NCBI RefSeq assembly: GCF_041659925.1
Contig: NZ_JBAZXI010000012.1
DNA: 64,000 nucleotides
Direction: 5' to 3' (one strand)
DNA from: Sphingomonas sp.
GTDB taxonomy: Bacteria; Pseudomonadota; Alphaproteobacteria; Sphingomonadales; Sphingomonadaceae
Shown here: positions 4,134-36,638 of the stretch, piece by piece
Layout: each line of letters begins with the position of its first letter
Position numbering within the stretch: the stretch's first letter is position 1
Position numbers and translations under genes: made by a program
Notes under the pieces: generated by a model
The model's database searches: none
The model's input: the letters and a program-made list of their open reading frames with translations, nothing else
Told to the model about the DNA's origin: nothing

Positions 4134-5165
<1,032 letters not shown>

Positions 5166-5215
5166 TTAGGCGGTTTGCCGTAGCGTCGCAAGACGTAAAG
5201 CCGGGCGCTTAATAT

Positions 5216-5542
5216 CTATCTTTGCAACTCATTCGCAAGTGCATTAAGCGTCGACGGATCGCTGGAATCGACATAGCGCCGCTCGCCACTGGCCGGATTG
5301 AACCAGACCGTGACGGGACGGCCCGTCTCGTCGTCGATGAAACGTTCGGGGGTTTCCTGCCAGCTGTCGCCCGCCGGGCGGCGCTGCGCGGCGCCGTAGC
5401 GCACACGCTCGAACGCGATGCCGAACAGCAGCACGCCGCTGGCGACGAGGCTGGGCCAGACGCCCGTATCGACCAGGGTGCCGGCCAATGCGCCGACAAA
5501 GGCGATCGCCGCGACGATGAGGACGATCGTGCGCAGGATCAT
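5216..5542 (-). CDS. Small membrane protein, unknown function
   Basis: MILRTIVLIVAAIAFVG with two hydrophobic segments then ETPERFIDDETGRPVTVWFNPASGERRYV. ATGA overlap with upstream YbjQ gene. Confidence 0.75.
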   Translation of the reverse strand: MILRTIVLIVAAIAFVGALAGTLVDTGVWPSLVASGVLLFGIAFERVRYGAAQRRPAGDSWQETPERFIDDETGRPVTVWFNPASGERRYVDSSDPSTLNALANELQR

Positions 5543-5865
5543 GCCGGCACCGGATCGAGAATGACCGCCGTGCCATAAGCGACGACCTCGTTCATCGACC
5601 GGGCGAGTTCGCCCGAATCGAAGCGCATCATGACCACGGCATTGGCCCCCATCAGCGCGGCATTGGCGACGAGCCGGTCGATCGCGTGGCGCCGGGCATC
5701 CTCGACGAGGCGCGAATATTCGGGAATCTCGCCGCCGACCAGCGAGCGCAGCCCGGCCGTGATGTTGCCGCCCAGCCCGCGACTGCGCACGACGACGCCG
5801 AACACCTGGCCGAGCACCGCCCTGACCTGGTGGCCGGGAACATTTTCGGTGGTGACGACGAGCAT
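5539..5865 (-). CDS. YbjQ / UPF0145 family protein
   Basis: MLVVTTENVPG, GLRSLVGGEI, A-x-x-x-GANAVV, EVVAYGTAV. Confidence 0.9.
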   Translation of the reverse strand: MLVVTTENVPGHQVRAVLGQVFGVVVRSRGLGGNITAGLRSLVGGEIPEYSRLVEDARRHAIDRLVANAALMGANAVVMMRFDSGELARSMNEVVAYGTAVILDPVPA

Positions 5866-5989
5866 GGGCAGTCTCCCCTGGTCCGGACGGCCTTAGCCCT
5901 TTTCCGGCGCGAAGGCACGCCATCTCGATACGCAGGCGGACACGCGCCGCGACCGTGGCGCCCCGCGCCGACCGGCAGCGCCGTCGCGT

Positions 5990-7102
5990 TCAGCCGCCGC
6001 CATGCCCCGCGTCGAGATAATCGGCCGAGCGCATCTCCTCCAGCCGGCTGACGGTGCGCTCGAACTCGAAGCGGCCATCGCCCTTTTCATAGAGCGCAGC
6101 GGGCTCGGCATCGGCGGCGGCGAGCAGCTTGACCTTCTGTTCGTAGAGCGCGTCGATCAGCGCGACGAAGCGCGCCGCCTCATTGCGGTTCTCCGGCCCC
6201 AGCCGGGGAATCCCGACCAGGATGACGGTGTGATAGCGCCGCGCGACGGCGAGATAGTCGGCCGCGCCGCGCGCTTCGCCGCACAGCTTCTTGAACGCGA
6301 AGACCGCGACGCCCTTGAGGCTCTTGGGCACGTGCAGCGTGCGCCCGCCCTGCACCGGAATATCCTCGGCCGGGACATGCGCGCGATCCTCGGGCGGATA
6401 GTCGGTCAGGCGGAAGAAGGCGGCGGACAGCTCCGCGGTCGCCGCGGCACCATTGGGCACGAGCCAGGTCTCCTGCTGGCCGAGCCGGTCGCGACGATAA
6501 TCGACCGGGCCGTTGAGCGGCAACACGTCGAGCCGATTCTGCAGCAGGCCGATGAACGGCAGGAAATGCTCGCGATTGAGCCCGTCCTTGTAAAGATCGA
6601 ACGGCGCGCGATTGGAGGTGGTGACGATGGTGACGCCGGCCTCGATCAACGCCGTGAACAGCCGCGACAGGATCATCGCGTCGGGCGAGTTGGTCACCAT
6701 CATCTCGTCGAAGGCGAGCAGCCGCGCCTCCTCGGCGAGCGCGGTGGCGACGGGGAGGATCGGGTCGCCGGTCTCCTTGCGCCGCTCGGCGGCGATGCGC
6801 TGATGCACCTCCAGCATGAATTCGGCGAAGTGGACGCGGCGCTTGCGGCGGATGTCGAGGCAGCTGAAGAACAGGTCCATCAGCATCGACTTGCCGCGCC
6901 CGACGCCGCCCCACAGATAGACGCCGCGCGGCGCCTCGGGCTTGCGGCCGAGCGCGCGCCACAGGGTACTGCCGCGTTTCGGTGTCGCTTCGAGCGCGGT
7001 GGCGAGCGCGGCGAGGCGGTGGGCGGCGGCGGCCTGTTCGGGGTCGGGGCGAAGTTCGCCGGCGGCGACGAGCGCGTCGTAACGCGCAATCAGTCCGGTC
7101 AT
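5990..7102 (-). CDS. zapE: AFG1/ZapE family ATPase
   Basis: GVYLWGGVGRGKSMLMDLF (Walker A), LLAFDEM, TSNRAP, RFVALIDALYE, FERTVSRL. Confidence 0.93.
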   Translation of the reverse strand: MTGLIARYDALVAAGELRPDPEQAAAAHRLAALATALEATPKRGSTLWRALGRKPEAPRGVYLWGGVGRGKSMLMDLFFSCLDIRRKRRVHFAEFMLEVHQRIAAERRKETGDPILPVATALAEEARLLAFDEMMVTNSPDAMILSRLFTALIEAGVTIVTTSNRAPFDLYKDGLNREHFLPFIGLLQNRLDVLPLNGPVDYRRDRLGQQETWLVPNGAAATAELSAAFFRLTDYPPEDRAHVPAEDIPVQGGRTLHVPKSLKGVAVFAFKKLCGEARGAADYLAVARRYHTVILVGIPRLGPENRNEAARFVALIDALYEQKVKLLAAADAEPAALYEKGDGRFEFERTVSRLEEMRSADYLDAGHGGG

Positions 7103-26145: not shown

Positions 26146-26175
26146 CCGGCCTCGCCCGGCTCAGGGCGAGGCCGG
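26146..26175. terminator. 12-bp hairpin between convergent M16 and S8-PLD genes
   Basis: CCGGCCTCGCCC-ggctca-GGGCGAGGCCGG. No U-tract, so function is inferred from position only. Confidence 0.45.
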
Positions 26176-29100
26176 GTCGACCAGGTCGAGCAGCAACGGC
26201 GCGACGATGCCGATCGCGCGGTTGATGATCGGGTGGTGCGGCGGATGGACCGGGTCGAAGCGCGCCACGCCGAGCGCGGGATTGGGCACCATCGGCGAGG
26301 AGAAGCCGGGCCATAGCGATATGTCGGTGCCGTCGGTCGGTGCCGGCACGCCGAGATGCTCGCTCCACAGCCGCATGCGGAACTGCTGGGCGAAGGTCAG
26401 CCCGCTCGCCGAGGTCTCCGCGCTCTCGCCGCGCGCGGCGAGCGCGATCAGCGGCGGGCTGGCATTGGCGTCGTCGAAGATGAAGGCATCGACCTCGCTG
26501 TCATGCTGGTAGCCGCGCCGGTTGCAGTTGGCCGATCCGATCACCGCCAGCTCGTCGTCGAACACCCAGCACTTCGAGTGGACATAGCTCTCCCGCCCGA
26601 AGCTGTTCGGCGCACTGCCGCGCGGCTTGTTGAGCTGGAAGACGTTGAGCTTGGCCGCGACATCGGGGCTCTTGCCGGCGATCACCGCGTCGATGAACTG
26701 CTGGCGATAGAATTGCGGGAAGATCAGCCCGCCGCTGATCTCGTTGCCGGGGATCAGGATCGTGACGTGATTCAACCGATCGATCACCCTGTTAAGAGCA
26801 CGGGCCGTGGCAAGGTCGATCAGATACTGGTCTTCGATATAAATGAAGCGCTGGGCGTTGGCGATCGCGGTGATCAGCAGCCGGCCGATGTCGCGTTGTT
26901 TGGGCGGGCGCGTGCTGCCGGCGACCGGCGTCCAGGTCCGCGCGACGATCACCGAGGCGCTGCCGCCGAACGGCGCGTCGGCGAGTGACGGGTTGGGGAT
27001 CGCCGGCGCGGGAACGCCGGTGATCGGGTCGCCGCGCAACGCGCCCTTGGCGGCGTCGATCGCGCGGCCGTCAGGGTGGTCGAGCCAGCGCTCGACAAAG
27101 GTGCGCAGCAGCTCGCGCGTCGCCGGTCCGACGATGCGGCAATGCGTGTCGTGCTGCGGATCGCTCGGCCCGACCGCGCCGTGCGTGCCGGTGCCGCAGC
27201 TGGTGATGTCGGGCATCACGCGGTTGGGGTTGAGGTCGAGCCCGCCGCAATAGCCGACCAGCCGCTCCCCATCGAACACCAGCAGCACCTTCTGGTGGTG
27301 CGCCGCCTTGATGCCCTGCAGCTTGCGCGCGATCTCGTCGCGGATCCGCCGCCACTCGGCATCGACCGCGGGGTCGAGTCGCGCCAGCGCGAGGACGCCC
27401 GACGCCATCTGCATCGCCGCCTCGACCTGCGCCCGGCTGATCGGCACCGCCCCGCCGTTGCGGCCGTCGACGATGCCGCCGCCATTGGACAGCGCGTTGA
27501 TCCGCCCGATATTCTCGCGGATCACGCCCGGCTTGCTGAGATTGTCCCATACCATCGCGCGGACCTGCACGCCGCGCGATACGGCGGCGCTGAGCAGCGC
27601 GTTGAGGCTGGTGGTGCAGTCACCGTGGCGCAGCGGGAAATTGTCGTACATGTCCCAGCCGAGCAGGTAGATGAAGGCCCGGTCGCCCTGCGCGGCGCGG
27701 ATGTCGTCGACCATCGCGTCATAGGTCGCGGCGCCGTCGACCAGCGCCTTGACCGCGTTCTGCGTCGTGGTCGGCGCATTGGCCGAGCCGCGCAGGATCG
27801 ACAGCCAGCGGTCGGGCCGCAGCACGACGGTCGAGATCGGGATGATCGGCGGGACGATCGGGGGAATGATCGGCGGGAAGTCCGGCGGCGCATCGTCGCG
27901 CGCGAGGAGATCGAGCATCGCCCAGGTCTTCGGGCCGATCACGCCGTCCCACTCGCTCGGCTGGCCGGGAAAGGCGATGTGCTGGAACGACAGGGTCGCG
28001 GCGGCGGTGTTGGGGCCGAAGATCGCGTCGACGGTGAGCGGGCAGCGGTCGATCGGGCTCTGCATCGCCCCCACGCGCCGGGCGTGGACGCGGTTGAGCT
28101 TGGCCTGCGCCTCGGCGACCGCCGGGCCGGACGAGCCGCGCCGGATCATCGGGTGCGCGCCCGGCGGCGGCGGCACCGACTCGTCGGCAGCCTCGCCGGC
28201 ATGGCGCAGGATAACGCTGTCGTGGAGCATCAGCCCGTCGGGCCCGGTGACGCGCCGCGCGAAGCCCATCGGACCGCCGCCGGGTTCGATCACGCGGACA
28301 TAGCGGCCGGGCAGCGGCCCCTCGGTGACGACGCCGAGCCGGCGCATCGCCCCAGCGCCGAGCAAGGCGGGGTCGAGGATGACGGCGACCCGCGGTGCGC
28401 GCGTCGGGCCGTGGCGCAACAGCACGTCGCCGGGGCGCAGGTCGCCGGCGAGGCGTTGCCCCTGCCAGGCGACGACGCCGATCGACCGGTCATCGGGATC
28501 GAGCGCGCGGCGCAGCATCGTCAGCGGCGGTTCGCCGGCGAGCGCGGTCGGAAAGTCGGCGGGCGCGACACCGTCGCTCAGCAGCCGCGTGGCGGCATCG
28601 ACAAGATCCTGGGTCATGGATTCTCCTTCGCGGGGTGGCGCGGGTGGACGGGGCGGGGTTGCGACCGGCGGGGGAAGCGCGCGCGCGCGCGCCACCGCTT
28701 CGGCGATGGCGAGCTGGCCATAGCCCCAGCGCGGATCGTCGGAGCCGGGCGCGGCGAGCGTCGCGAACAGCGCGCGGCGCAACGCCGTGACGCGCTGCGA
28801 CCCGGCGGCCTGCATCATCAACGCGAGCGTGCCGGCGACGTGCGGCGCGGCCATGCTGGTGCCGCTCATCCGCATATAGCCGGGCGTCGCGGTGGGATCG
28901 CTGCGCGACCTGACCGAGAGCACGCGCACGCCGGGCGCGGCGAGCAGCGGCTTGCGGCGGCCGTCGCGGGTCGGCCCGACGCTGGAGAAGCTGCCCAGCG
29001 GGTGCGCCGGATCGTGCGCGTCATAGGCGCCGACCGCAATGGTGCGCAGCGCATTGCAGATGCTGCCGGTGGTCGATCGCCGATCGGCGAGGTCGTGGCG

Positions 29101-30366
29101 GAACTGCGCCTGGCACTTGGGACAGGCGGCATTGCGCTCGATCCAGGCGTGCCAGCGGCCATCGACCACGTCGACGCCCTCGATCTCGATTTCCCACACC
29201 CCCGCCACCGCTTCGCGGCGCAGGAACAGGTTGATCAGATTGTCGCCGCTATTGGGGTCGGCGATGCGATGATAGAGATGACCGACCTCGCGCCCATCGG
29301 CGAGCCGCACCGGCGCATCATGGCCGAGCGCCGCGACCGCCGACGCGCCGTCGGGGCCGCGCATCCGGGCGGCGAACTCGTCGGCACCGTTATACCAGAT
29401 CTCGACCGATACCGGGATCGCGTCGCGCCGCGTCATGCGGAAGGGGAGCTGCGCGGTGCGCGTCTCGCTGATCCGGCCGGACATATGGACGTCGCGCGAA
29501 TAATAGTTGCCCGTGCTCTGCACCACGGCGGTGCCCGGGCGATTGATCAGCAGCCAGTCGATCGCGCGCTCGACCAGCAACCTCCCGGTATGCGAGCCGC
29601 CATGGCGGCCGAGGCTGAGGTTGAAGACCAGCGGCCGGTCGGCGGCGGTGCGCACGGCGAAGTCGATCGCCTCGAGCAGCTCGATCGAGTTGCCGAGGTC
29701 GCCGCCGCCGCTGCCGAGATGGATGAAGATCAACCCCGCCTCGGGCGCGATGCCCTGCGGCCCGCCGGCGCGGCCATTGCCGGCGGCGATGCCGAGGACA
29801 TGCGTGCCGTGCGCATTGGCGGCCGGCGTATAGCCGAGCGCGGCGAACGGATCGGGCTGGCCAAGCGCGCGGTCGATCGCGGCGGGTGTGTGGATGCGGC
29901 CATAGCCGTAGCGATTGGCCGGCACCGCCGCGCCGCGCTGGTCCCACAGGCCGAGCAGGCGGGTCGAACCATCGGCGTTGCGGAAATCGGGATGGGCATA
30001 GTCGAGCGACCAGTCGATCACGCACACCGCCGTGCCACGCCCGGTTTCGGGGAGGTCGGGCGGCCGGCGGACATCGTCGGGCGCGATATCGGGCGGGTCA
30101 TCGGCCTCGCCGACGCCGTGGCCGTCATGATGGATCGCCTCAAGCTCGCGGGCATAGTCGCGCGGCGCCTTGATGCTGGCGATCGCCGGATCGGCATGGA
30201 GCGCGCGGAGCGCGCTGCGCTCGGTGCGCGCCGTGGCGACGACACCGAATTCGGCGACCAGCCGCAACGCGGCGGGCGCGCGGGCGCCGTGGTGGAGCCG
30301 GACGACGACGGCCACATCGTCGTCCGGCTCACCCTCGGCGATCAGTTCCTGGAGTGCGGGATCCAT
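26161..30366 (-). CDS. Fusion: S8 subtilase (Csp-like) + unknown domain + peptidoglycan-binding domain + phospholipase D
   Basis: Triad VIDWSLD (D118), HGTHV (H186), GTSMAAP (S504). PG-binding IRRGSSGPAV..DAIFGPNT..DGVIGPKTW. PLD HHQKVLLVFD and YVHSKCWVFDD..IGSAN. Confidence 0.88.
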   Translation of the reverse strand: MDPALQELIAEGEPDDDVAVVVRLHHGARAPAALRLVAEFGVVATARTERSALRALHADPAIASIKAPRDYARELEAIHHDGHGVGEADDPPDIAPDDVRRPPDLPETGRGTAVCVIDWSLDYAHPDFRNADGSTRLLGLWDQRGAAVPANRYGYGRIHTPAAIDRALGQPDPFAALGYTPAANAHGTHVLGIAAGNGRAGGPQGIAPEAGLIFIHLGSGGGDLGNSIELLEAIDFAVRTAADRPLVFNLSLGRHGGSHTGRLLVERAIDWLLINRPGTAVVQSTGNYYSRDVHMSGRISETRTAQLPFRMTRRDAIPVSVEIWYNGADEFAARMRGPDGASAVAALGHDAPVRLADGREVGHLYHRIADPNSGDNLINLFLRREAVAGVWEIEIEGVDVVDGRWHAWIERNAACPKCQAQFRHDLADRRSTTGSICNALRTIAVGAYDAHDPAHPLGSFSSVGPTRDGRRKPLLAAPGVRVLSVRSRSDPTATPGYMRMSGTSMAAPHVAGTLALMMQAAGSQRVTALRRALFATLAAPGSDDPRWGYGQLAIAEAVARARALPPPVATPPRPPAPPREGESMTQDLVDAATRLLSDGVAPADFPTALAGEPPLTMLRRALDPDDRSIGVVAWQGQRLAGDLRPGDVLLRHGPTRAPRVAVILDPALLGAGAMRRLGVVTEGPLPGRYVRVIEPGGGPMGFARRVTGPDGLMLHDSVILRHAGEAADESVPPPPGAHPMIRRGSSGPAVAEAQAKLNRVHARRVGAMQSPIDRCPLTVDAIFGPNTAAATLSFQHIAFPGQPSEWDGVIGPKTWAMLDLLARDDAPPDFPPIIPPIVPPIIPISTVVLRPDRWLSILRGSANAPTTTQNAVKALVDGAATYDAMVDDIRAAQGDRAFIYLLGWDMYDNFPLRHGDCTTSLNALLSAAVSRGVQVRAMVWDNLSKPGVIRENIGRINALSNGGGIVDGRNGGAVPISRAQVEAAMQMASGVLALARLDPAVDAEWRRIRDEIARKLQGIKAAHHQKVLLVFDGERLVGYCGGLDLNPNRVMPDITSCGTGTHGAVGPSDPQHDTHCRIVGPATRELLRTFVERWLDHPDGRAIDAAKGALRGDPITGVPAPAIPNPSLADAPFGGSASVIVARTWTPVAGSTRPPKQRDIGRLLITAIANAQRFIYIEDQYLIDLATARALNRVIDRLNHVTILIPGNEISGGLIFPQFYRQQFIDAVIAGKSPDVAAKLNVFQLNKPRGSAPNSFGRESYVHSKCWVFDDELAVIGSANCNRRGYQHDSEVDAFIFDDANASPPLIALAARGESAETSASGLTFAQQFRMRLWSEHLGVPAPTDGTDISLWPGFSSPMVPNPALGVARFDPVHPPHHPIINRAIGIVAPLLLDLVDPASP

Positions 30367-30404
30367 CGCATTTCACCTTTCTCCAGGGGTACGCCGCACC
30401 AGCG

Positions 30405-30833
30405 TCAGCTGGCGCTTTTCTTCGCCGGGGCGCTGGCCGCGGTCTGCGCATCGATGCTCGCGGCAAGTGCCGCGATCGCCGCCAGCAGCTTGGCGTTCTG
30501 CGCGTCCATCTGCTTGCCGAACTGGGCGAAGCCTTCGGCCAGCCCAGCCTTCAGGTCTTCCGCCGTGATGCCCGATGCCGTCGGCGTCGGCTGGGGCGTC
30601 GGCCCTGGCGTGGGCGGCGGTGGCGAGGCGCCCTCGCCGCCGGCCGTGCCGACCTCGCTCGCCCGCTGCCGGCGGCGTGCGCTCCTGATCGAGCTTTGCG
30701 CGAGCACGACGCCGACCGGCGACATGCCACCGACACCCATCAGCAAGCCGGCCCGGGTCGCCGCCGCGCCCGTCACTTTCTCCTTGCGCGCGATCAGCGT
30801 GCCGACCGCGAAGGCGGTTGTACTGAAGCTCAT
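30405..30833 (-). CDS. Hypothetical protein (hydrophobic N-terminus, Pro linker, C-terminal helix)
   Basis: CAGGAG RBS; 142 aa; co-oriented within tight cluster. Confidence 0.75.
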   Translation of the reverse strand: MSFSTTAFAVGTLIARKEKVTGAAATRAGLLMGVGGMSPVGVVLAQSSIRSARRRQRASEVGTAGGEGASPPPPTPGPTPQPTPTASGITAEDLKAGLAEGFAQFGKQMDAQNAKLLAAIAALAASIDAQTAASAPAKKSAS

Positions 30834-30858
30834 CTTTCGTCTCCTGGCTTGCGACGGC

Positions 30859-31458
30859 TCACTTGGTGAGTGCCATCAGCATGACGAGCGGACCGATCCC
30901 GCCATCGCCGCCGAACATGCCGCCGCCGGAGCCGGACGAGCCGCCGAAGCCACCGCTGAGCAACAGGATCGGCAGCAGCTTCGACATCTGGTCGCCATTG
31001 TCGATCACGACATTCGGCGTCCCGGCGACGGTGGCGGTGTCGGTCGTGCTGAGCAGCGGCAGGATCATCGCCATCTGGCGCGATTCATCGAGCCCCTTCT
31101 TGAGCGCGTCGGTCGCCTTGATGCGCTCGGCGACCTCATGCTTGAGGCTGGCGCGCAGCTTGTGCGTCTCGCTCTCGAGAGCGCGGGTGCGTCCGTCGAC
31201 CGTGGTGATCGCCTTGCTGTTGGTGGCGATCCGCGCGTCGAGCCGGTGCGCCGTGGCGTTCAGTTCGGCCTTGGTGGCATAACCGCCCGCGACCGGGTGC
31301 GGCACGGGGTTGCCGCGCTTCGCGGTCGGCACGCGCGGCCGGAACATCGGCCGGCCGCGGCGGCGCACCGCCTCGTCGGATTCGAACGCCTCGTCATAGG
31401 CCTCATCGCTCTCGACATCCTCGAGCAGTTCGCCGAAATCTTCGAAGGAATTGTACAT
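30859..31458 (-). CDS. Hypothetical coiled-coil protein with acidic N-terminus and Gly/hydrophobic C-terminus
   Basis: AAAGGA RBS; EDVESDEAYDEAFESDE, YATKAEL heptads, LLPILLLSGGFGG..GPLVMLMALTK. Confidence 0.82.
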   Translation of the reverse strand: MYNSFEDFGELLEDVESDEAYDEAFESDEAVRRRGRPMFRPRVPTAKRGNPVPHPVAGGYATKAELNATAHRLDARIATNSKAITTVDGRTRALESETHKLRASLKHEVAERIKATDALKKGLDESRQMAMILPLLSTTDTATVAGTPNVVIDNGDQMSKLLPILLLSGGFGGSSGSGGGMFGGDGGIGPLVMLMALTK

Positions 31459-31476
31459 GTTGCTGTCCTTTCGCCG

Positions 31477-31923
31477 TCAGTGAGTGGTGGTCTGCTCGGG
31501 CACGGTAGGTCGCGGGCGCGGCGGGCCGAGCAGCCGCGCGCGCAATTCGAGATCGGGTCGCACCATCCCGGGCCGGCCGCGTCCGCGGCAGCTCGGGCAA
31601 TAATCATCCTCGCCCCAGCACAGGCCGCAGGCGCCAAGCGCGGCGGCGAGATCGGCGAGGCGCTCGCTGGCGCCACGATGCGCCTCGAACAGGCGGCGGG
31701 CCTGGCGCTTCATCGCCTCGATCCGGCTTTCCGCCTCGGCGAGCCGCTCGGCCAGCGCGAGCACCTCGTCGCCGAGATCGTCGGCAACGGGCTCGGGCAC
31801 GATGGCGCGCGCCTGCATCATCTGGGCGAGCATCGCGAGTTGCGGGTTGCTGCGCTGGAGGTCGGCGATCATCTGCTGGGCGAGCGCGGCCGGATCGGCC
31901 GCCGCGAGGGCCGGATCAACCAT
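31477..31923 (-). CDS. Hypothetical coiled-coil protein with CxxC..CxxC motif
   Basis: ATG 31923 with GAGGA RBS, 8-nt overlap with upstream stop; GACGLCWGED-x-x-CPSCRGRG-x-PG. Confidence 0.8.
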   Translation of the reverse strand: MVDPALAAADPAALAQQMIADLQRSNPQLAMLAQMMQARAIVPEPVADDLGDEVLALAERLAEAESRIEAMKRQARRLFEAHRGASERLADLAAALGACGLCWGEDDYCPSCRGRGRPGMVRPDLELRARLLGPPRPRPTVPEQTTTH

Positions 31924-32902
31924 AGACCGGTTCCTCTTCGTACCATTCGGCCTCGCCGAGCGACCAGGTCTCGTCATTCTCCCAGTCCTCGACCGCATAA
32001 TCCTCGCCGGCGACGACGAGCGGCGGGGCGGGCTGCGGCGCCGGTTCGGCCGGCGCGACATTGACCGTCACCGGGCGCGACTGGGCATTGGGCCCCCAGA
32101 TCGAGGGCGACAGCGCGAGCAGCGTGAGCAGCGTGTCGGTGCGCCCCTCGGCATCCTCGACATCGACGCCGAGCGCCTCGCCGGCCTCGGCGATGAAGCC
32201 GGGCATGGCCTCGGCGGATTCGTCATATTCGGCCGCCTCATGCGCCGAGCGGTTGGCGAGCGTGCCGAGCGCACTGAGCAGCATATGAACCGGGATCTGC
32301 TGGCCGCCGACCGGGATCGACTGGCGGCCGAAGCTGCCCATCGCGGCCGAGGACAGCGCCTGCAGCGTCTCGGGCCTGGCAAGCATGCCGATCAGCCCAT
32401 TGGCGCCACCGCCCCCACCGCCGGTGAGCATCGCCAGCGGACTGCCGCCGCGACCGCCCGCCGCGCCGCCACCGATCGCACCGAGCGCGCCGAGCGCGCC
32501 GCCGGCGCCACCGCCACGGACGGTCGAGACGAGATTGCTGACGGTACCGATGCCACCGCCGATCGCCCGCGCGGTTGGGTTGCGGGAGTGCGACAGGACG
32601 CTGCCGGCACCGCCGGCGACCGCGCCGGCAAGCGCGCCCCAGGGCCCGAGCGCCGAGCCGGCCATCGCACCCGACACGATGCCGGGGGCGGCCTGCTGCG
32701 CGAAATGGCCGACCGCGCCCGCCGCATGTTTCAGGCCGCGGCCGATATCGTCGAACAGGCCTTCGACATCCTCGGCGCTGGCGCCCTCGCCATAGATCTG
32801 GCGGACAAGGGCATCGAGCTGTTGCGCGTCCGCCTCGGCATAAGCGGGCGAGAGGCTGGCGCGAAGCAGGGGGTAGTCCTCATGCATGACGGGGTTCCTC
32901 AT
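31916..32902 (-). CDS. Glycine-rich hypothetical protein with amphipathic helix, glycine zipper and acidic C-tail
   Basis: EGLFDDIGRGLKHAAGAVG, GAMAGSALGPWGALAGAVAGG, tail EDWENDETWSLGEAEWYEEE. ATGA overlap with upstream gene. Confidence 0.82.
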   Translation of the reverse strand: MRNPVMHEDYPLLRASLSPAYAEADAQQLDALVRQIYGEGASAEDVEGLFDDIGRGLKHAAGAVGHFAQQAAPGIVSGAMAGSALGPWGALAGAVAGGAGSVLSHSRNPTARAIGGGIGTVSNLVSTVRGGGAGGALGALGAIGGGAAGGRGGSPLAMLTGGGGGGANGLIGMLARPETLQALSSAAMGSFGRQSIPVGGQQIPVHMLLSALGTLANRSAHEAAEYDESAEAMPGFIAEAGEALGVDVEDAEGRTDTLLTLLALSPSIWGPNAQSRPVTVNVAPAEPAPQPAPPLVVAGEDYAVEDWENDETWSLGEAEWYEEEPVYG

Positions 32903-33165
32903 TCGGGCTGATCGGGGTCAGGCTGATCTGGGTCGGGCTGATCGGGCGGCGCGGCGACGTGACGGTCGACCAGGGCGGCAAGGCTTTCGAGGCTGTCGAA
33001 CGCGCCGAGCATCCGCCCGCCAAGCGCGGCGACGGTGCCGCGCAGGACCGGCGCGCCGCCGGCGACCGGCTCGAGCCAGGCACGCACGACCAACGTGGCG
33101 GCGCGGCCACCGATGGTGAATTGCGAAGCGGCTGGGCCCTGATCGTCATGGTCGGCTCCGTTCAT
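32899..33165 (-). CDS. Small hypothetical protein (88 aa)
   Basis: LVVRAWLEP..LRGTV..FDSLESLAALV; C-terminal PDQPD repeats; coupled to next gene. Confidence 0.7.
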   Translation of the reverse strand: MNGADHDDQGPAASQFTIGGRAATLVVRAWLEPVAGGAPVLRGTVAALGGRMLGAFDSLESLAALVDRHVAAPPDQPDPDQPDPDQPE

Positions 33166-33221: not shown

Positions 33222-33260
33222 GTCACGCCGCGATCACGGCGCCGTCACCGGATCATCACG
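33222..33260 (-). promoter_or_regulatory. Four GTGA-core direct repeats at exact 11-bp period; candidate SARP binding site
   Basis: Plus-strand TCAC at 33223, 33234, 33245, 33256, directly upstream of the five-small-gene operon. The fourth copy overlaps the BTAD stop codon. Confidence 0.65.
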
Positions 33261-34197
33261 GTTGCGCGAGCGCGCTGTCGATCAGGCCGATCGCGGTACG
33301 CATCTGGTCGCGCGTCGCGACAAGCACCTCGCGGAGGTCGCCATTCCCCGGCGTCGGCGCGGCCGATGCCATGGCCATCGGTCGTGCCGGCGCCGTCACC
33401 GCGACGCGGCCGCCCGGCGCGCAAAGACCGCGGTAAAGCGCGCTGGTTTCATCCATCGGCTCGACGCCGAGTTCGGCCGCAAGCACGGCGGCGCAGTGGC
33501 GATATTGCCGCAACGCGAGCGCGCGATTGCCGGTGCGGGCATAGCCGGTCATCAGCAGGCGGTGGGCATCCTCGCGCAGCGGCTCGGCGGCGGTCAGCGC
33601 GCGGGCGGTGGTGACGACGGCGCGCCAGTCGTCGGCGCGGGCATGGATGTTGGCGAGCGCATAGAGCGCGTCGAGCCGCAGACAGCGCAGCCGCTCGCGC
33701 TCGATCAACGCCCATTCGGCATCGACCATCGGCATGAAGTCGCCGCCATAACCGAGCAGCGCGCGGTGCAGCCGACGCCGCGCGGCGGGGTCGAGCGACA
33801 CCGTGCCCGACATGGCGGCGAGTGGTGCGGCGCGGCGTTCGAAAGCGAGCATGTCGACCCACAAGCCGTCGTCGAGCCGCAGCCGGACGCGCTCGCCGCT
33901 GGCCTCGACCGGGCAGGCGAGATCGCCGAACGCGCCCTTGATGCGATAGAGCGCGCTGGCCAGCGAATGTCGCGCGGCATCGCTCTCATGGTCGGGCCAC
34001 AGCGCCATGGCGAGCGCGTCGCGCTGTGCCGCGCGGCGCGGCGCGGCGAGCAGATAGCCGAACACCGGCCAGCAATTGGGCGGCACGGCGATGGTCGCGC
34101 CGCCGATCCGCGCGGCGGCGACAACACCCAATACCATAAGCCTCCAACGCGCCACGCAATCCCCCGGTTCGGTTTGGATTGCGACCCACCGGACCAA
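33256..34197 (-). CDS. SARP/AfsR-family transcriptional activator (wHTH + BTAD, no ATPase)
   Basis: RDALAMALWPD..ARHSLASALYRI; LWVDMLAFE; W-x-x-x-ERERLR; EPLREDAHRLLM..ALRQY..L-x-x-ELGVEP. TTG start uncertain. Confidence 0.9.
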   Translation of the reverse strand: MVRWVAIQTEPGDCVARWRLMVLGVVAAARIGGATIAVPPNCWPVFGYLLAAPRRAAQRDALAMALWPDHESDAARHSLASALYRIKGAFGDLACPVEASGERVRLRLDDGLWVDMLAFERRAAPLAAMSGTVSLDPAARRRLHRALLGYGGDFMPMVDAEWALIERERLRCLRLDALYALANIHARADDWRAVVTTARALTAAEPLREDAHRLLMTGYARTGNRALALRQYRHCAAVLAAELGVEPMDETSALYRGLCAPGGRVAVTAPARPMAMASAAPTPGNGDLREVLVATRDQMRTAIGLIDSALAQP

Positions 34198-35894: not shown

Positions 35895-36437
35895 CTACAG
35901 GCCCTGCGTCAGCCTAGGATCGTCGTGAGCGACCCACATCGCAGCTTCTTCCGCCCAAAGTGAGCCTGATTGGAGAGCTATTGGATCGACCGACTGGAGG
36001 AATCGAAACCAGCTATCGCGCAATCGCAGCGGCACTAGACCATCGAGAAAAGCGTCTGGCCCAAGCTCATGGCAAGTTTCACTGATCAAATGGCGGTATT
36101 GGAGAAGCGCTTCCGCAAGCGATGCTAAGTCTCGATTGACATAATGGATAGCGAGGCTGCTGTCATGATTGAGGTAGTGAATGTCGCCATTGGAGCTGAG
36201 GACGATAGGATCGCCTGAGCCGTTGGTGCCGATTTGCATGCCCGTGTCTGTAGCAAAATAGCTCGCGTATTTAGGCCCGAATGAAAGGCACGGGGCAGCA
36301 CCGCTTGGAAGGCCCGCCTCGAACAAAAAGTGCTTATCGGCAAATCTAAGCGGGAATTGATTGAGCAAGCCGAGGGGAAATGCGGCAAGAAAGTCAGGGT
36401 CGTCACCCCATTTCTCGGCAAACTCATCGGGTGTCAT
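35895..36437 (-). CDS. SUKH-4-like immunity protein
   Basis: FLFEAGLP..SF, IGTNGSGDPIVL..G-x-I-x-YLNHD..YVNRDLASLAEAL. GGAG RBS before ATG 36437; visibly AT-richer. Confidence 0.65.
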   Translation of the reverse strand: MTPDEFAEKWGDDPDFLAAFPLGLLNQFPLRFADKHFLFEAGLPSGAAPCLSFGPKYASYFATDTGMQIGTNGSGDPIVLSSNGDIHYLNHDSSLAIHYVNRDLASLAEALLQYRHLISETCHELGPDAFLDGLVPLRLRDSWFRFLQSVDPIALQSGSLWAEEAAMWVAHDDPRLTQGL

Positions 36438-36638
36438 ATAGATCGCTCCCCTCCGACAGCCGACGCGATACAGCCTAAAATCGCTTTTCCCAAATGTCTG
36501 CAACTGGGGCGACGGCTGCCCGGCCGCTTCTCTCCCCATTTCCAACCGGTCGCCTTTCGGGCGGCTAGGTCGCCTTGACGGCGAGGCGTAGCGGAAACGG
36601 TCAGCCGGTGCGCGGTTCGCCCGTTGCCCCGGCTGCGA

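Follow-up and report, generated by a model that had tools for sequence, protein, structure and literature searches.

A conserved glycine-zipper protein linked to an S8 protease in Proteobacteria, a candidate for a membrane-breaching subunit

How do envelope-degrading enzymes reach their substrate when they carry no signal peptide? An operon of Sphingomonas sp. (Alphaproteobacteria; assembly GCF_041659925.1, contig NZ_JBAZXI010000012.1) raises this question. It lies in a stretch of 64,000 nucleotides, here called the window, and contains a gene, C, for a very acidic protein with a glycine-zipper hairpin. Further down the same strand, gene G encodes an S8 protease fused to two envelope-directed domains. 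A sequence-only reading of gene C had taken its product for an antimicrobial peptide or bacteriocin, hidden behind an acidic pro-segment and unmasked by proteolysis to form the membrane-inserting subunit. We propose, at a probability of roughly 40%, that C permeabilises membranes and is, in this capacity, the core of a tightly controlled module for lysis or release. If C does permeabilise membranes, the module would give a large set of lysozymes, lipases, phospholipases and tyrosinases that have no signal peptide a route to the envelope, in bacteria without an obvious secretion system dedicated to them.

The proposal starts from a helical hairpin of C that reads P73, G78xxxG82xxxG86-P87-x-G89xxxG93xxxG97. 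GxxxG occurs 17 times in the protein against 9.0 expected from 5000 composition-preserving shuffles (P=0.004), and GxxxGxxxG occurs seven times against 1.4 (P=0.003). Conservation is stronger evidence for the zipper than this enrichment. The homolog set comprised 77 sequences, with identity down to ~45%, and a distant set was 25-45% identical to the window protein. Invariant among the 77 are Y37, G38, E47, P73, G78, A79, G82, G86 and P87, then G89, G93, G97, G115, G131 and G132, and in the C-terminal part L170, L174, R176, P177, E178, G192, E222, R254 and L259. What is still invariant in the distant set is essentially the hairpin: P73, G82, G86, P87, G89, G93, G97 and, outside it, P177. G78 drops there to at least 90%. 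In neither alignment is any segment of C better conserved than the hairpin (0.75 in A2, 0.63 in A3). In-register (G/A/S)xxxGxxxG on a conserved helix, which C has, marks the glycine-zipper class, a class said to go back to Kim et al. in 2005. Judged by its motif, C belongs with the glycine-zipper membrane-active proteins.

Is C a real gene? We conclude that it is, because it has at least 144 homologs and its dN/dS against three relatives is 0.10-0.20, with similar values in all segments. C is under uniform purifying selection and is not diversifying. Two plus-strand ORFs (open reading frames), at 31802-32911 and 27076-32064, overlap it and lack support; they are typical high-GC antisense frames. 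The longer one, a 1662-amino-acid frame that runs antisense across four genes of the operon, is backed by no independent evidence and most likely an artefact of high GC content.

The second line of evidence is the constant company of C. Loci of this type run in the order activator, small ORF, C, D (145-200 amino acids), E (190-220), usually F (113-296) and a large S8 protease, and every neighbourhood with enough flank has the same order. C, D and the protease occur together in 20 of 20 distinct neighbourhoods with enough downstream flank, and in each of the 20 the space between D and the protease gene is taken by an E homolog or by an ORF of the size of E. The hosts are Alpha-, Beta- and Gammaproteobacteria and metagenomes. 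Upstream of the module there is a regulator gene in every locus whose upstream flank was examined. It is a BTAD/SARP activator in the window and the close clade, and a sigma54-type or GerE/LuxR protein in distant clades. C is the most conserved small subunit of this module. Our literature searches returned no description of the module.

The protease and its payload make up the rest of the case. G retains the catalytic residues D118, H186 and S504, and its S8 domain is nearest to Csp-type processing subtilases (CspBA model, E=1.7e-40). Subtilases are known as processing peptidases in toxin systems (PMC3482391; PMC9424270). After the S8 domain, the window payload consists of PG_binding_1 and a two-HKD phospholipase D (PLD), all in one polypeptide. 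The payload of relatives is variable, fused or separate: an LCAT-like lipase, a tyrosinase with DUF7868, an OmpA-like protein, DUF2272 or a GH25 lysozyme. DUF2272 has reportedly been classed as papain-like in a published study. We identified signal-less envelope enzymes (PLD, lipase, lysozyme or tyrosinase) in eight loci. In six loci and the window, no product has a Sec signal peptide or a strongly hydrophobic transmembrane (TM) segment, the maximal 19-residue hydropathy (KD19) being mostly 0.9-1.5.

A membrane-active role for C, possibly controlled by the protease, is reasonable because a zipper hairpin under selection, of the motif class found in membrane-permeabilising proteins, is constantly paired with an S8 protease that has its catalytic residues. 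How might the hairpin become a pore? The steps suggested here are modelled on Tde1 and CdzC/CdzD, whose glycine zippers permeabilise membranes, and on the glycine-zipper literature. C would be made as a soluble, very acidic cytoplasmic protein, whose two helical domains, probably together with the Zn-knuckle protein D, would shield the weakly hydrophobic hairpin. Once an activator had switched the operon on, the S8 protease might cut a disordered linker, and hairpins would then enter the cytoplasmic membrane. There, contacts between their GxxxG faces would build up an oligomeric channel or lesion, to which the Gly-rich hairpins of E and F might also contribute. Through that lesion the signal-less peptidoglycan-binding enzymes (in the window, the PLD) would gain access to the envelope, leading to controlled lysis or release. 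Membrane insertion, oligomerisation, the part played by D, priming by the protease and action on the producer's own membrane are the elements that we infer. Priming of C is possible, as is priming of E or F; the protease may also do no more than free the enzyme modules from its own polypeptide.

We favour lysis or release because it covers most of the facts: the proline-bracketed invariant hairpin, the obligate partners, the signal-less payload and the dedicated activator. The strict linkage of C, D and the protease, the invariance of the zipper, the purifying selection on C and the absence of a conserved immunity-like gene speak for it as well. Other facts weigh against it. At ~35 kDa, and with a net charge of -23 (-14 to -31 across the family), C is unlike known holins. 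Its best 19-residue hydropathy (1.22 in the window protein, 1.2-1.3 in the family) is below the usual TM threshold, and the hairpin lacks positive-inside flanks. The module has no conserved energy source or outer-membrane component. The window protein matches no Pfam Gly-zipper model; on the favourable side, eight of the 77 homologs match Gly-zipper_YMGG and three Gly-zipper_OmpA, all weakly (best E ~1e-3). GxxxG faces also pack soluble helical bundles, so that the zipper need not imply a membrane role.

What became of the sequence-only reading? The motifs that it named are present in the translation of the minus-strand ORF at 31916-32902: SAEDVE at residues 42-47, GLFDDIGRGLKHAAGAVGHFAQQ at 48-70 and GAMAGSALGPWGALAGAVAGG at 78-98. 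Its amphipathic helix is borne out, since residues 48-70 have the highest helical hydrophobic moment of the protein (0.52-0.68) and fall within one unbroken helix (residues 43-83) in the AlphaFold2 (AF2) model. The further GxxxG repeats that it saw are the enriched ones counted above, with zipper glycines that are invariant in the 77 homologs. It also likened the GLFD start of the helix to aurein and citropin, and here the likeness breaks down. These amphibian lytic peptides are cationic amphipathic helices of 13-16 residues with a conserved GLFD start; in C the helix is uncharged, the segment is embedded in a protein of 328 residues and GLFD is lineage-specific. The four columns hold G in 48 of the 77 homologs and S in 18, F in 40 and L in 37, F in 61 and W in 13, and D in 40, S in 11 and G in 10. 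Distant members have E-x-[FLIWS]-[FWLM]-x-x-[LIV] at this site, as in EDFLSSL, ESIWGSL and ENFMKTL. Mean hydrophobicity over residues 48-72 is low (0.04-0.21), below that of aurein 1.2 and citropin 1.1 by the same computation. What is conserved is a hydrophobic stripe at a spacing of 3-4 with the small residues G54, G56 and G65, a pattern suggestive of a helix that packs against something.

The supposed pro-segment fares no better. Residues 10-50 are conserved and have the highest confidence of the whole AF2 model (pLDDT 93-96), and SAEDVE starts the same long helix as the alleged core. There is therefore no linker between a pro-part and a core; a folded, conserved domain stands in that place. 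Neither C nor any of the 77 homologs matches a bacteriocin model in Pfam or NCBIfam. No leader, C39/ABC exporter, type I secretion system or immunity gene was found in the window or in nine gene-called, Pfam-annotated neighbourhoods. The size, acidity and lack of diversification of C also speak against a class II bacteriocin. C is neither frog-peptide-like nor a classical bacteriocin precursor. The idea of a membrane subunit keeps the selected zipper hairpin and the ever-present S8 protease; it loses the aurein analogy, the pro-segment and the bacteriocin class.

The layout of C and its operon is given in Table 1. The structure of C is an AF2 model built from the 77 sequences, with an overall pLDDT of 68 and values of 77-96 in the domains; the zipper region is modelled as helix-turn-helix. 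The acidic and aromatic character of the tail is retained in distant homologs, yet its sequence conservation is low. The product has 328 residues, or 323 if translation starts at Met6. Met1 overlaps the stop of the upstream 88-amino-acid ORF (ATGA), and both ATGs are kept in close relatives. The Met6 ATG (32887), five codons further on, has GAGGA 8 nucleotides upstream and is where distant homologs start, and it may be the true start.

Table 1. Positions in the window of the operon genes and of the segments of gene C
Feature	Position	Strand	Remarks
Gene A, SARP/BTAD transcriptional activator	33256..34197	-	BTAD E=2.5e-26
Four GTGA boxes between A and B	33222..33260	-	~11-bp spacing; sequence reading
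Gene B, first operon gene, 88 amino acids	32899..33165	-	4-nt ATGA overlap with C
Gene C, acidic glycine-zipper protein, 328 amino acids	31916..32902	-	ORF; homologs and 821 clusters (E<=1e-3)
C: N-terminal helical domain, residues 7-47	32762..32884	-	YPLLR..., Y37-G38, E44, E47; invariant or near-invariant columns; pLDDT 93-96
C: conserved amphipathic helix ('GLFD' segment), residues 48-72	32687..32761	-	moment 0.52-0.68, charge 0; within helix 43-83
C: glycine-zipper helical hairpin, residues 73-104	32591..32686	-	most conserved segment; invariant columns
C: third small-residue helix, residues 105-130	32513..32590	-	conservation limited to closer clade
C: Gly-rich linker, predicted disordered, residues 131-166	32405..32512	-	48% Gly; pLDDT 40-45; length varies among homologs
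C: C-terminal helical domain, residues 167-266	32105..32404	-	LxRPE, GR, D247, R254; invariant in 77 homologs: L174, R176, P177, E178, G192, E222, R254; pLDDT 77-86
C: Pro-rich segment, then acidic Trp/Tyr-rich tail, residues 267-328	31919..32104	-	charge -12, 3 Trp
Gene D, helical Zn-knuckle protein, 148 amino acids	31477..31923	-	invariant CxxCWG...CxxCxGxG
Gene E, coiled-coil protein, 199 amino acids	30859..31458	-	
Gene F, small poorly conserved protein	30405..30833	-	
Gene G, S8 protease + PG-binding domain + two-HKD phospholipase D	26161..30366	-	no signal peptide

Does C resemble any system already described? Pinholin S21 has a glycine-zipper second TM domain, and holins in general are proteins of 60-150 residues, truly hydrophobic and basic at the C-terminus. 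Like holin-endolysin cassettes and systems of holin-dependent protein release, the module sets signal-less muralytic enzymes beside a small, putatively membrane-active protein under tight control, with a hairpin that has a small-residue face. The signal-less muralytic enzyme expected near a holin is there: PG_binding_1 with PLD in the window, and GH25, DUF2272, lipase or PLD in relatives. Unlike holins, C has 328 residues, is acidic and only weakly hydrophobic (maximal KD19 1.22), and has no strongly hydrophobic TM domain. Nor do lysis cassettes have anything to match the S8 protease, the Zn-knuckle protein and the coiled-coil protein of the module. With the Pfam Gly-zipper clan (Gly-zipper_YMGG, PF13441; Gly-zipper_OmpA, PF13436) C has in common a pair of short helices, rich in Gly and Ala, that meet in a tight turn, but the window protein matches neither model. 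Members of those Pfam families are mostly small outer-membrane lipoproteins with signal peptides.

Two characterised zipper proteins are closer in kind. Tde1, a type VI secretion system (T6SS) effector of Agrobacterium, has a GxxxG-rich helical region that is bound by Tap1, permeabilises the inner membrane and lets the enzyme pass (PMC10240207). C likewise has consecutive GxxxG on a helical hairpin inside a soluble protein, and likewise comes with a coupled partner (D) and with enzymes. Unlike Tde1, C has no sequence or fold match and no T6SS, PAAR or VgrG context; its zipper is in a protein of its own and not at the N-terminus of an enzyme, and that protein has two additional conserved domains. 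The nearest real case of the bacteriocin idea is CdzC/CdzD of Caulobacter, proteins of 84-86 residues with a leader, type I export by CdzAB and a small TM immunity protein, CdzI, in which the glycine zipper is central to killing (PMC5380434). Like them, C is proteobacterial, horizontally scattered and zipper-bearing. Unlike them, it has no leader, and its module has no type I secretion system or TM immunity gene; C is also four times larger and acidic. A last parallel is the bacterial gasdermin, a pore-former encoded with a protease that could release autoinhibition. C has no gasdermin fold and no PADLOC match, and its protease is tied to envelope-degrading enzymes and has no sensor domains. 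By these comparisons C is not an aurein-type peptide, a class II or Cdz bacteriocin, a member of the Pfam Gly-zipper families, a holin or a gasdermin.

A bolder version of the favoured reading, which we find doubtful, takes C, D, E, usually F, and the S8 protease as a previously unrecognised, self-contained, ATPase-free membrane-breaching machine, a new release or delivery class in Proteobacteria. C would be the zipper subunit, D a Zn-knuckle chaperone and E a trimeric coiled coil with a Gly-rich tip like a fusion peptide. The subtilase would prime the subunits as furin-type proteases prime viral fusion proteins, and interchangeable envelope-degrading enzymes would be carried across the membrane of the producer or of a neighbour. 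The head of E is acidic and aromatic; a basic patch and a coiled coil precede the C-terminal hairpin, which is Gly/Met-rich and hydrophobic. Against the Protein Data Bank (PDB), its coiled-coil profile matches the repeat of the P22-type tail-needle gp26 (4lin_A, E=1.1e-4) and reovirus sigma-1 (E=5e-3), the matched repeat being R-I-x-x-N-x-x-A-I-x-x-[LV]-x-x-R. This suggests a trimeric, fibre-like stalk with a Gly/Met-rich hydrophobic tip.

Might C act on another cell instead? C would then leave the producer with the enzymes, and its hairpin would enter a target cell's membrane and either permeabilise it or aid the passage of the enzymes, in the manner of the Tde1 N-terminus, colicin or pyocin pore domains, or phage ejection and tape-measure proteins. 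Proteins that change from a soluble to a membrane-inserted form typically have a weakly hydrophobic hairpin within an otherwise soluble helical fold, as C does (PMC10240207), and the payload of PLD, lipase and lysozyme looks like a set of antibacterial envelope effectors. The likeness of E to tail-needle gp26 fits such a role. The module is also rare and patchy, and stands beside the conflict genes Mrr and SUKH-4 in the window and beside TIR and MoxR in L001, the Pseudaquabacterium terrae locus. But no immunity gene is conserved next to C, and the module lacks a secretion apparatus, an ATPase and a receptor-binding domain. Nor is C under diversifying selection; no phage homolog of it was found, and its hairpin matches P22 gp7 without significance (E=2.4). 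We regard a delivered translocator or toxin as unlikely.

A role outside the membrane must also be weighed. C could be a soluble scaffold or adaptor. Its GxxxG faces would then hold helices tightly together within a larger complex that also includes D, E, F and the protease, such as an enzyme-bearing fibre or particle. The low hydropathy and strong acidity of C agree with this; D, E and F are mostly coiled-coil or helical, and the coiled coil of E resembles trimeric viral fibres. A fusion of C and D, described below, indicates a stable complex, and C at its C-terminus and E at its N-terminus have acidic, aromatic tails that resemble docking peptides. However, a proline-flanked, Gly/Ala-only hairpin that stays invariant in very distant members is more typical of membrane hairpins, as the homologs' matches to the Pfam Gly-zipper clan also suggest, and a scaffold leaves unexplained the route by which signal-less envelope enzymes reach their substrate. 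We give the scaffold a low probability. Least probable of all is that the S8 protease removes an acidic N-terminus to free a lytic core, as the sequence-only reading had it, or activates a suicide pore like a bacterial gasdermin: strict linkage to a Csp-like protease with an intact triad, the precedent of toxin-processing subtilases and cuttable disordered linkers at residues 131-166 and 267-300 favour it, but GLFD is not conserved, the helix is uncharged, the would-be pro-segment is the best-folded part and runs on into the 'core' helix, no double-glycine leader, C39/ABC exporter or immunity gene accompanies C, Foldseek finds no gasdermin-like fold and PADLOC no match, and the S8 domain could just as well have its own multi-domain polypeptide as substrate.

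How large is the family? The at least 144 homologs come from a word-indexed search, and all of them are named 'hypothetical'. Their hosts are mostly Sphingomonas, with others in Bradyrhizobium, Lysobacter, Luteimonas, Aquincola/Pseudaquabacterium, Reyranella and Tropicimonas. When 1.84 billion cluster representatives were searched exhaustively with a profile, 821 clusters matched at E<=1e-3, 494 of them at 1e-10; these are clusters at 50% identity, and their number is a lower bound on family size. Full-length matches among those listed are mostly of 250-450 amino acids, and the aligned ones share the layout of C. The related loci were searched for with a 16-sequence alignment. C matches nothing in Pfam or NCBIfam (E<=0.1; for the core, to E<=10), PHROGs or PADLOC. 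Profile searches of PDB sequences with alignments A1 and A3 gave nothing significant, and with Foldseek nothing in PDB or BFVD matched the model at E<=0.001, the best E values being 2.3 and 0.27, respectively. Ten longer family members have no fused Pfam domain.

C is single-copy in its genome and rare. Sampling turned it up in 1 genome out of 200 from its family and in 1 out of 400 from its phylum, and the other genomes of its genus that were sampled lack it. This patchy spread is the pattern of a horizontally moving accessory module. A phage origin was rejected, as tblastn of C against 50,697 phage records gave no match. The plasmid search gave one match, on the 1.19-Mb replicon NZ_CP038636.1 of Cupriavidus oxalaticus X32, where the sequence beneath it is unannotated. 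This replicon has C, D and the S8 gene as a set on one strand, and ~2.6 kb off, on the opposite strand, the N-terminal part of C has another match, a partial one. If the proposed role is right, the few glycine-zipper membrane-active proteins would gain a new family, one that comprises at least 821 clusters and has neither a Pfam model nor a structural relative. The pairing with a Csp-like subtilase and the swappable payload make the module a testable candidate for a new system of lysis, release or antagonism. Even without a membrane role, the C family and its four partners, which are just as unannotated, form a conserved system that deserves a name.

Among the partners, D is the most closely joined to C. 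Its start overlaps the stop of C by 8 nucleotides, and the two genes are translationally coupled. After a long helix, D has the invariant motif AxGAC-x2-CWG-x4-C-x2-CxGxG, whose CxxCxGxG is of the DnaJ cysteine-rich type. The AF2 model of D is confident (pLDDT 86) and has no Foldseek relative in PDB; the label 'DnaJ-like' has no support beyond the CxxCxGxG motif, and we do not use it. C and D lie in a single frame of 470 amino acids (P0302) at positions 4956-6368 of locus L025, on contig_97969 of the metagenomic assembly ERZ25039591. By hhalign, its C part scores a probability of 99.9% and its D part 99.7%. The frame is either a natural fusion or the product of a frameshift or assembly artefact, and, coming from one contig, it can serve as a Rosetta-stone hint of a C-D complex. 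F has a mildly hydrophobic N-terminus and an Ala-rich helix; an ORF of 113-296 amino acids takes its position in most other loci and is not evident in L025.

Gene B is conserved only in loci with a BTAD-type regulator, and the GTGA boxes upstream of it are a probable SARP operator. Between 34.2 and 26.1 kb, the minus strand has no terminator-like site. In several Sphingomonas loci, a conserved ORF of ~137 amino acids with no Pfam match separates the S8/PG-binding gene from a PG-binding/PLD gene that stands by itself (L003:17087-17500, L011:17086-17499, and similarly in L008, L009 and L014). It is missing from the window, where S8, PG-binding and PLD domains are fused. Its product could be an adaptor or a PLD inhibitor.

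Around the operon, the window has an Mrr-type restriction endonuclease (18256-19134, plus strand) on one side and, on the other (35895-36545, minus strand), a weak match to a SUKH-4 immunity protein (E=2e-4, under the Pfam cut-off). These flanks are consistent with an island of conflict genes. Directly upstream of the module in Pseudaquabacterium terrae (L001:149-6407) are a TIR_2 protein, a MoxR-type AAA ATPase and a DUF7379 protein of 1325 amino acids, which look like a separate conflict or defence system. A type VII secretion analogy was rejected: the S8 domain scores 62.9 against a mycosin cut-off of 278.75, there is no EccC-type ATPase, and the GPWG of C is not a WxG motif, its aromatic residue being variable. 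We also rejected a general link to a phage-tail-like injection cluster, as sheath-like genes are unlinked to the module in two other hosts and were not found in one. Such a gene does lie ~43 kb from the operon in the same genome (G000:C12:119596-119853, ~13 kb past the end of the window), and another lies ~28 kb from the operon in S. psychrotolerans (G590:C1:463898-466187). Their nearness probably reflects shared island synteny and not a functional link.

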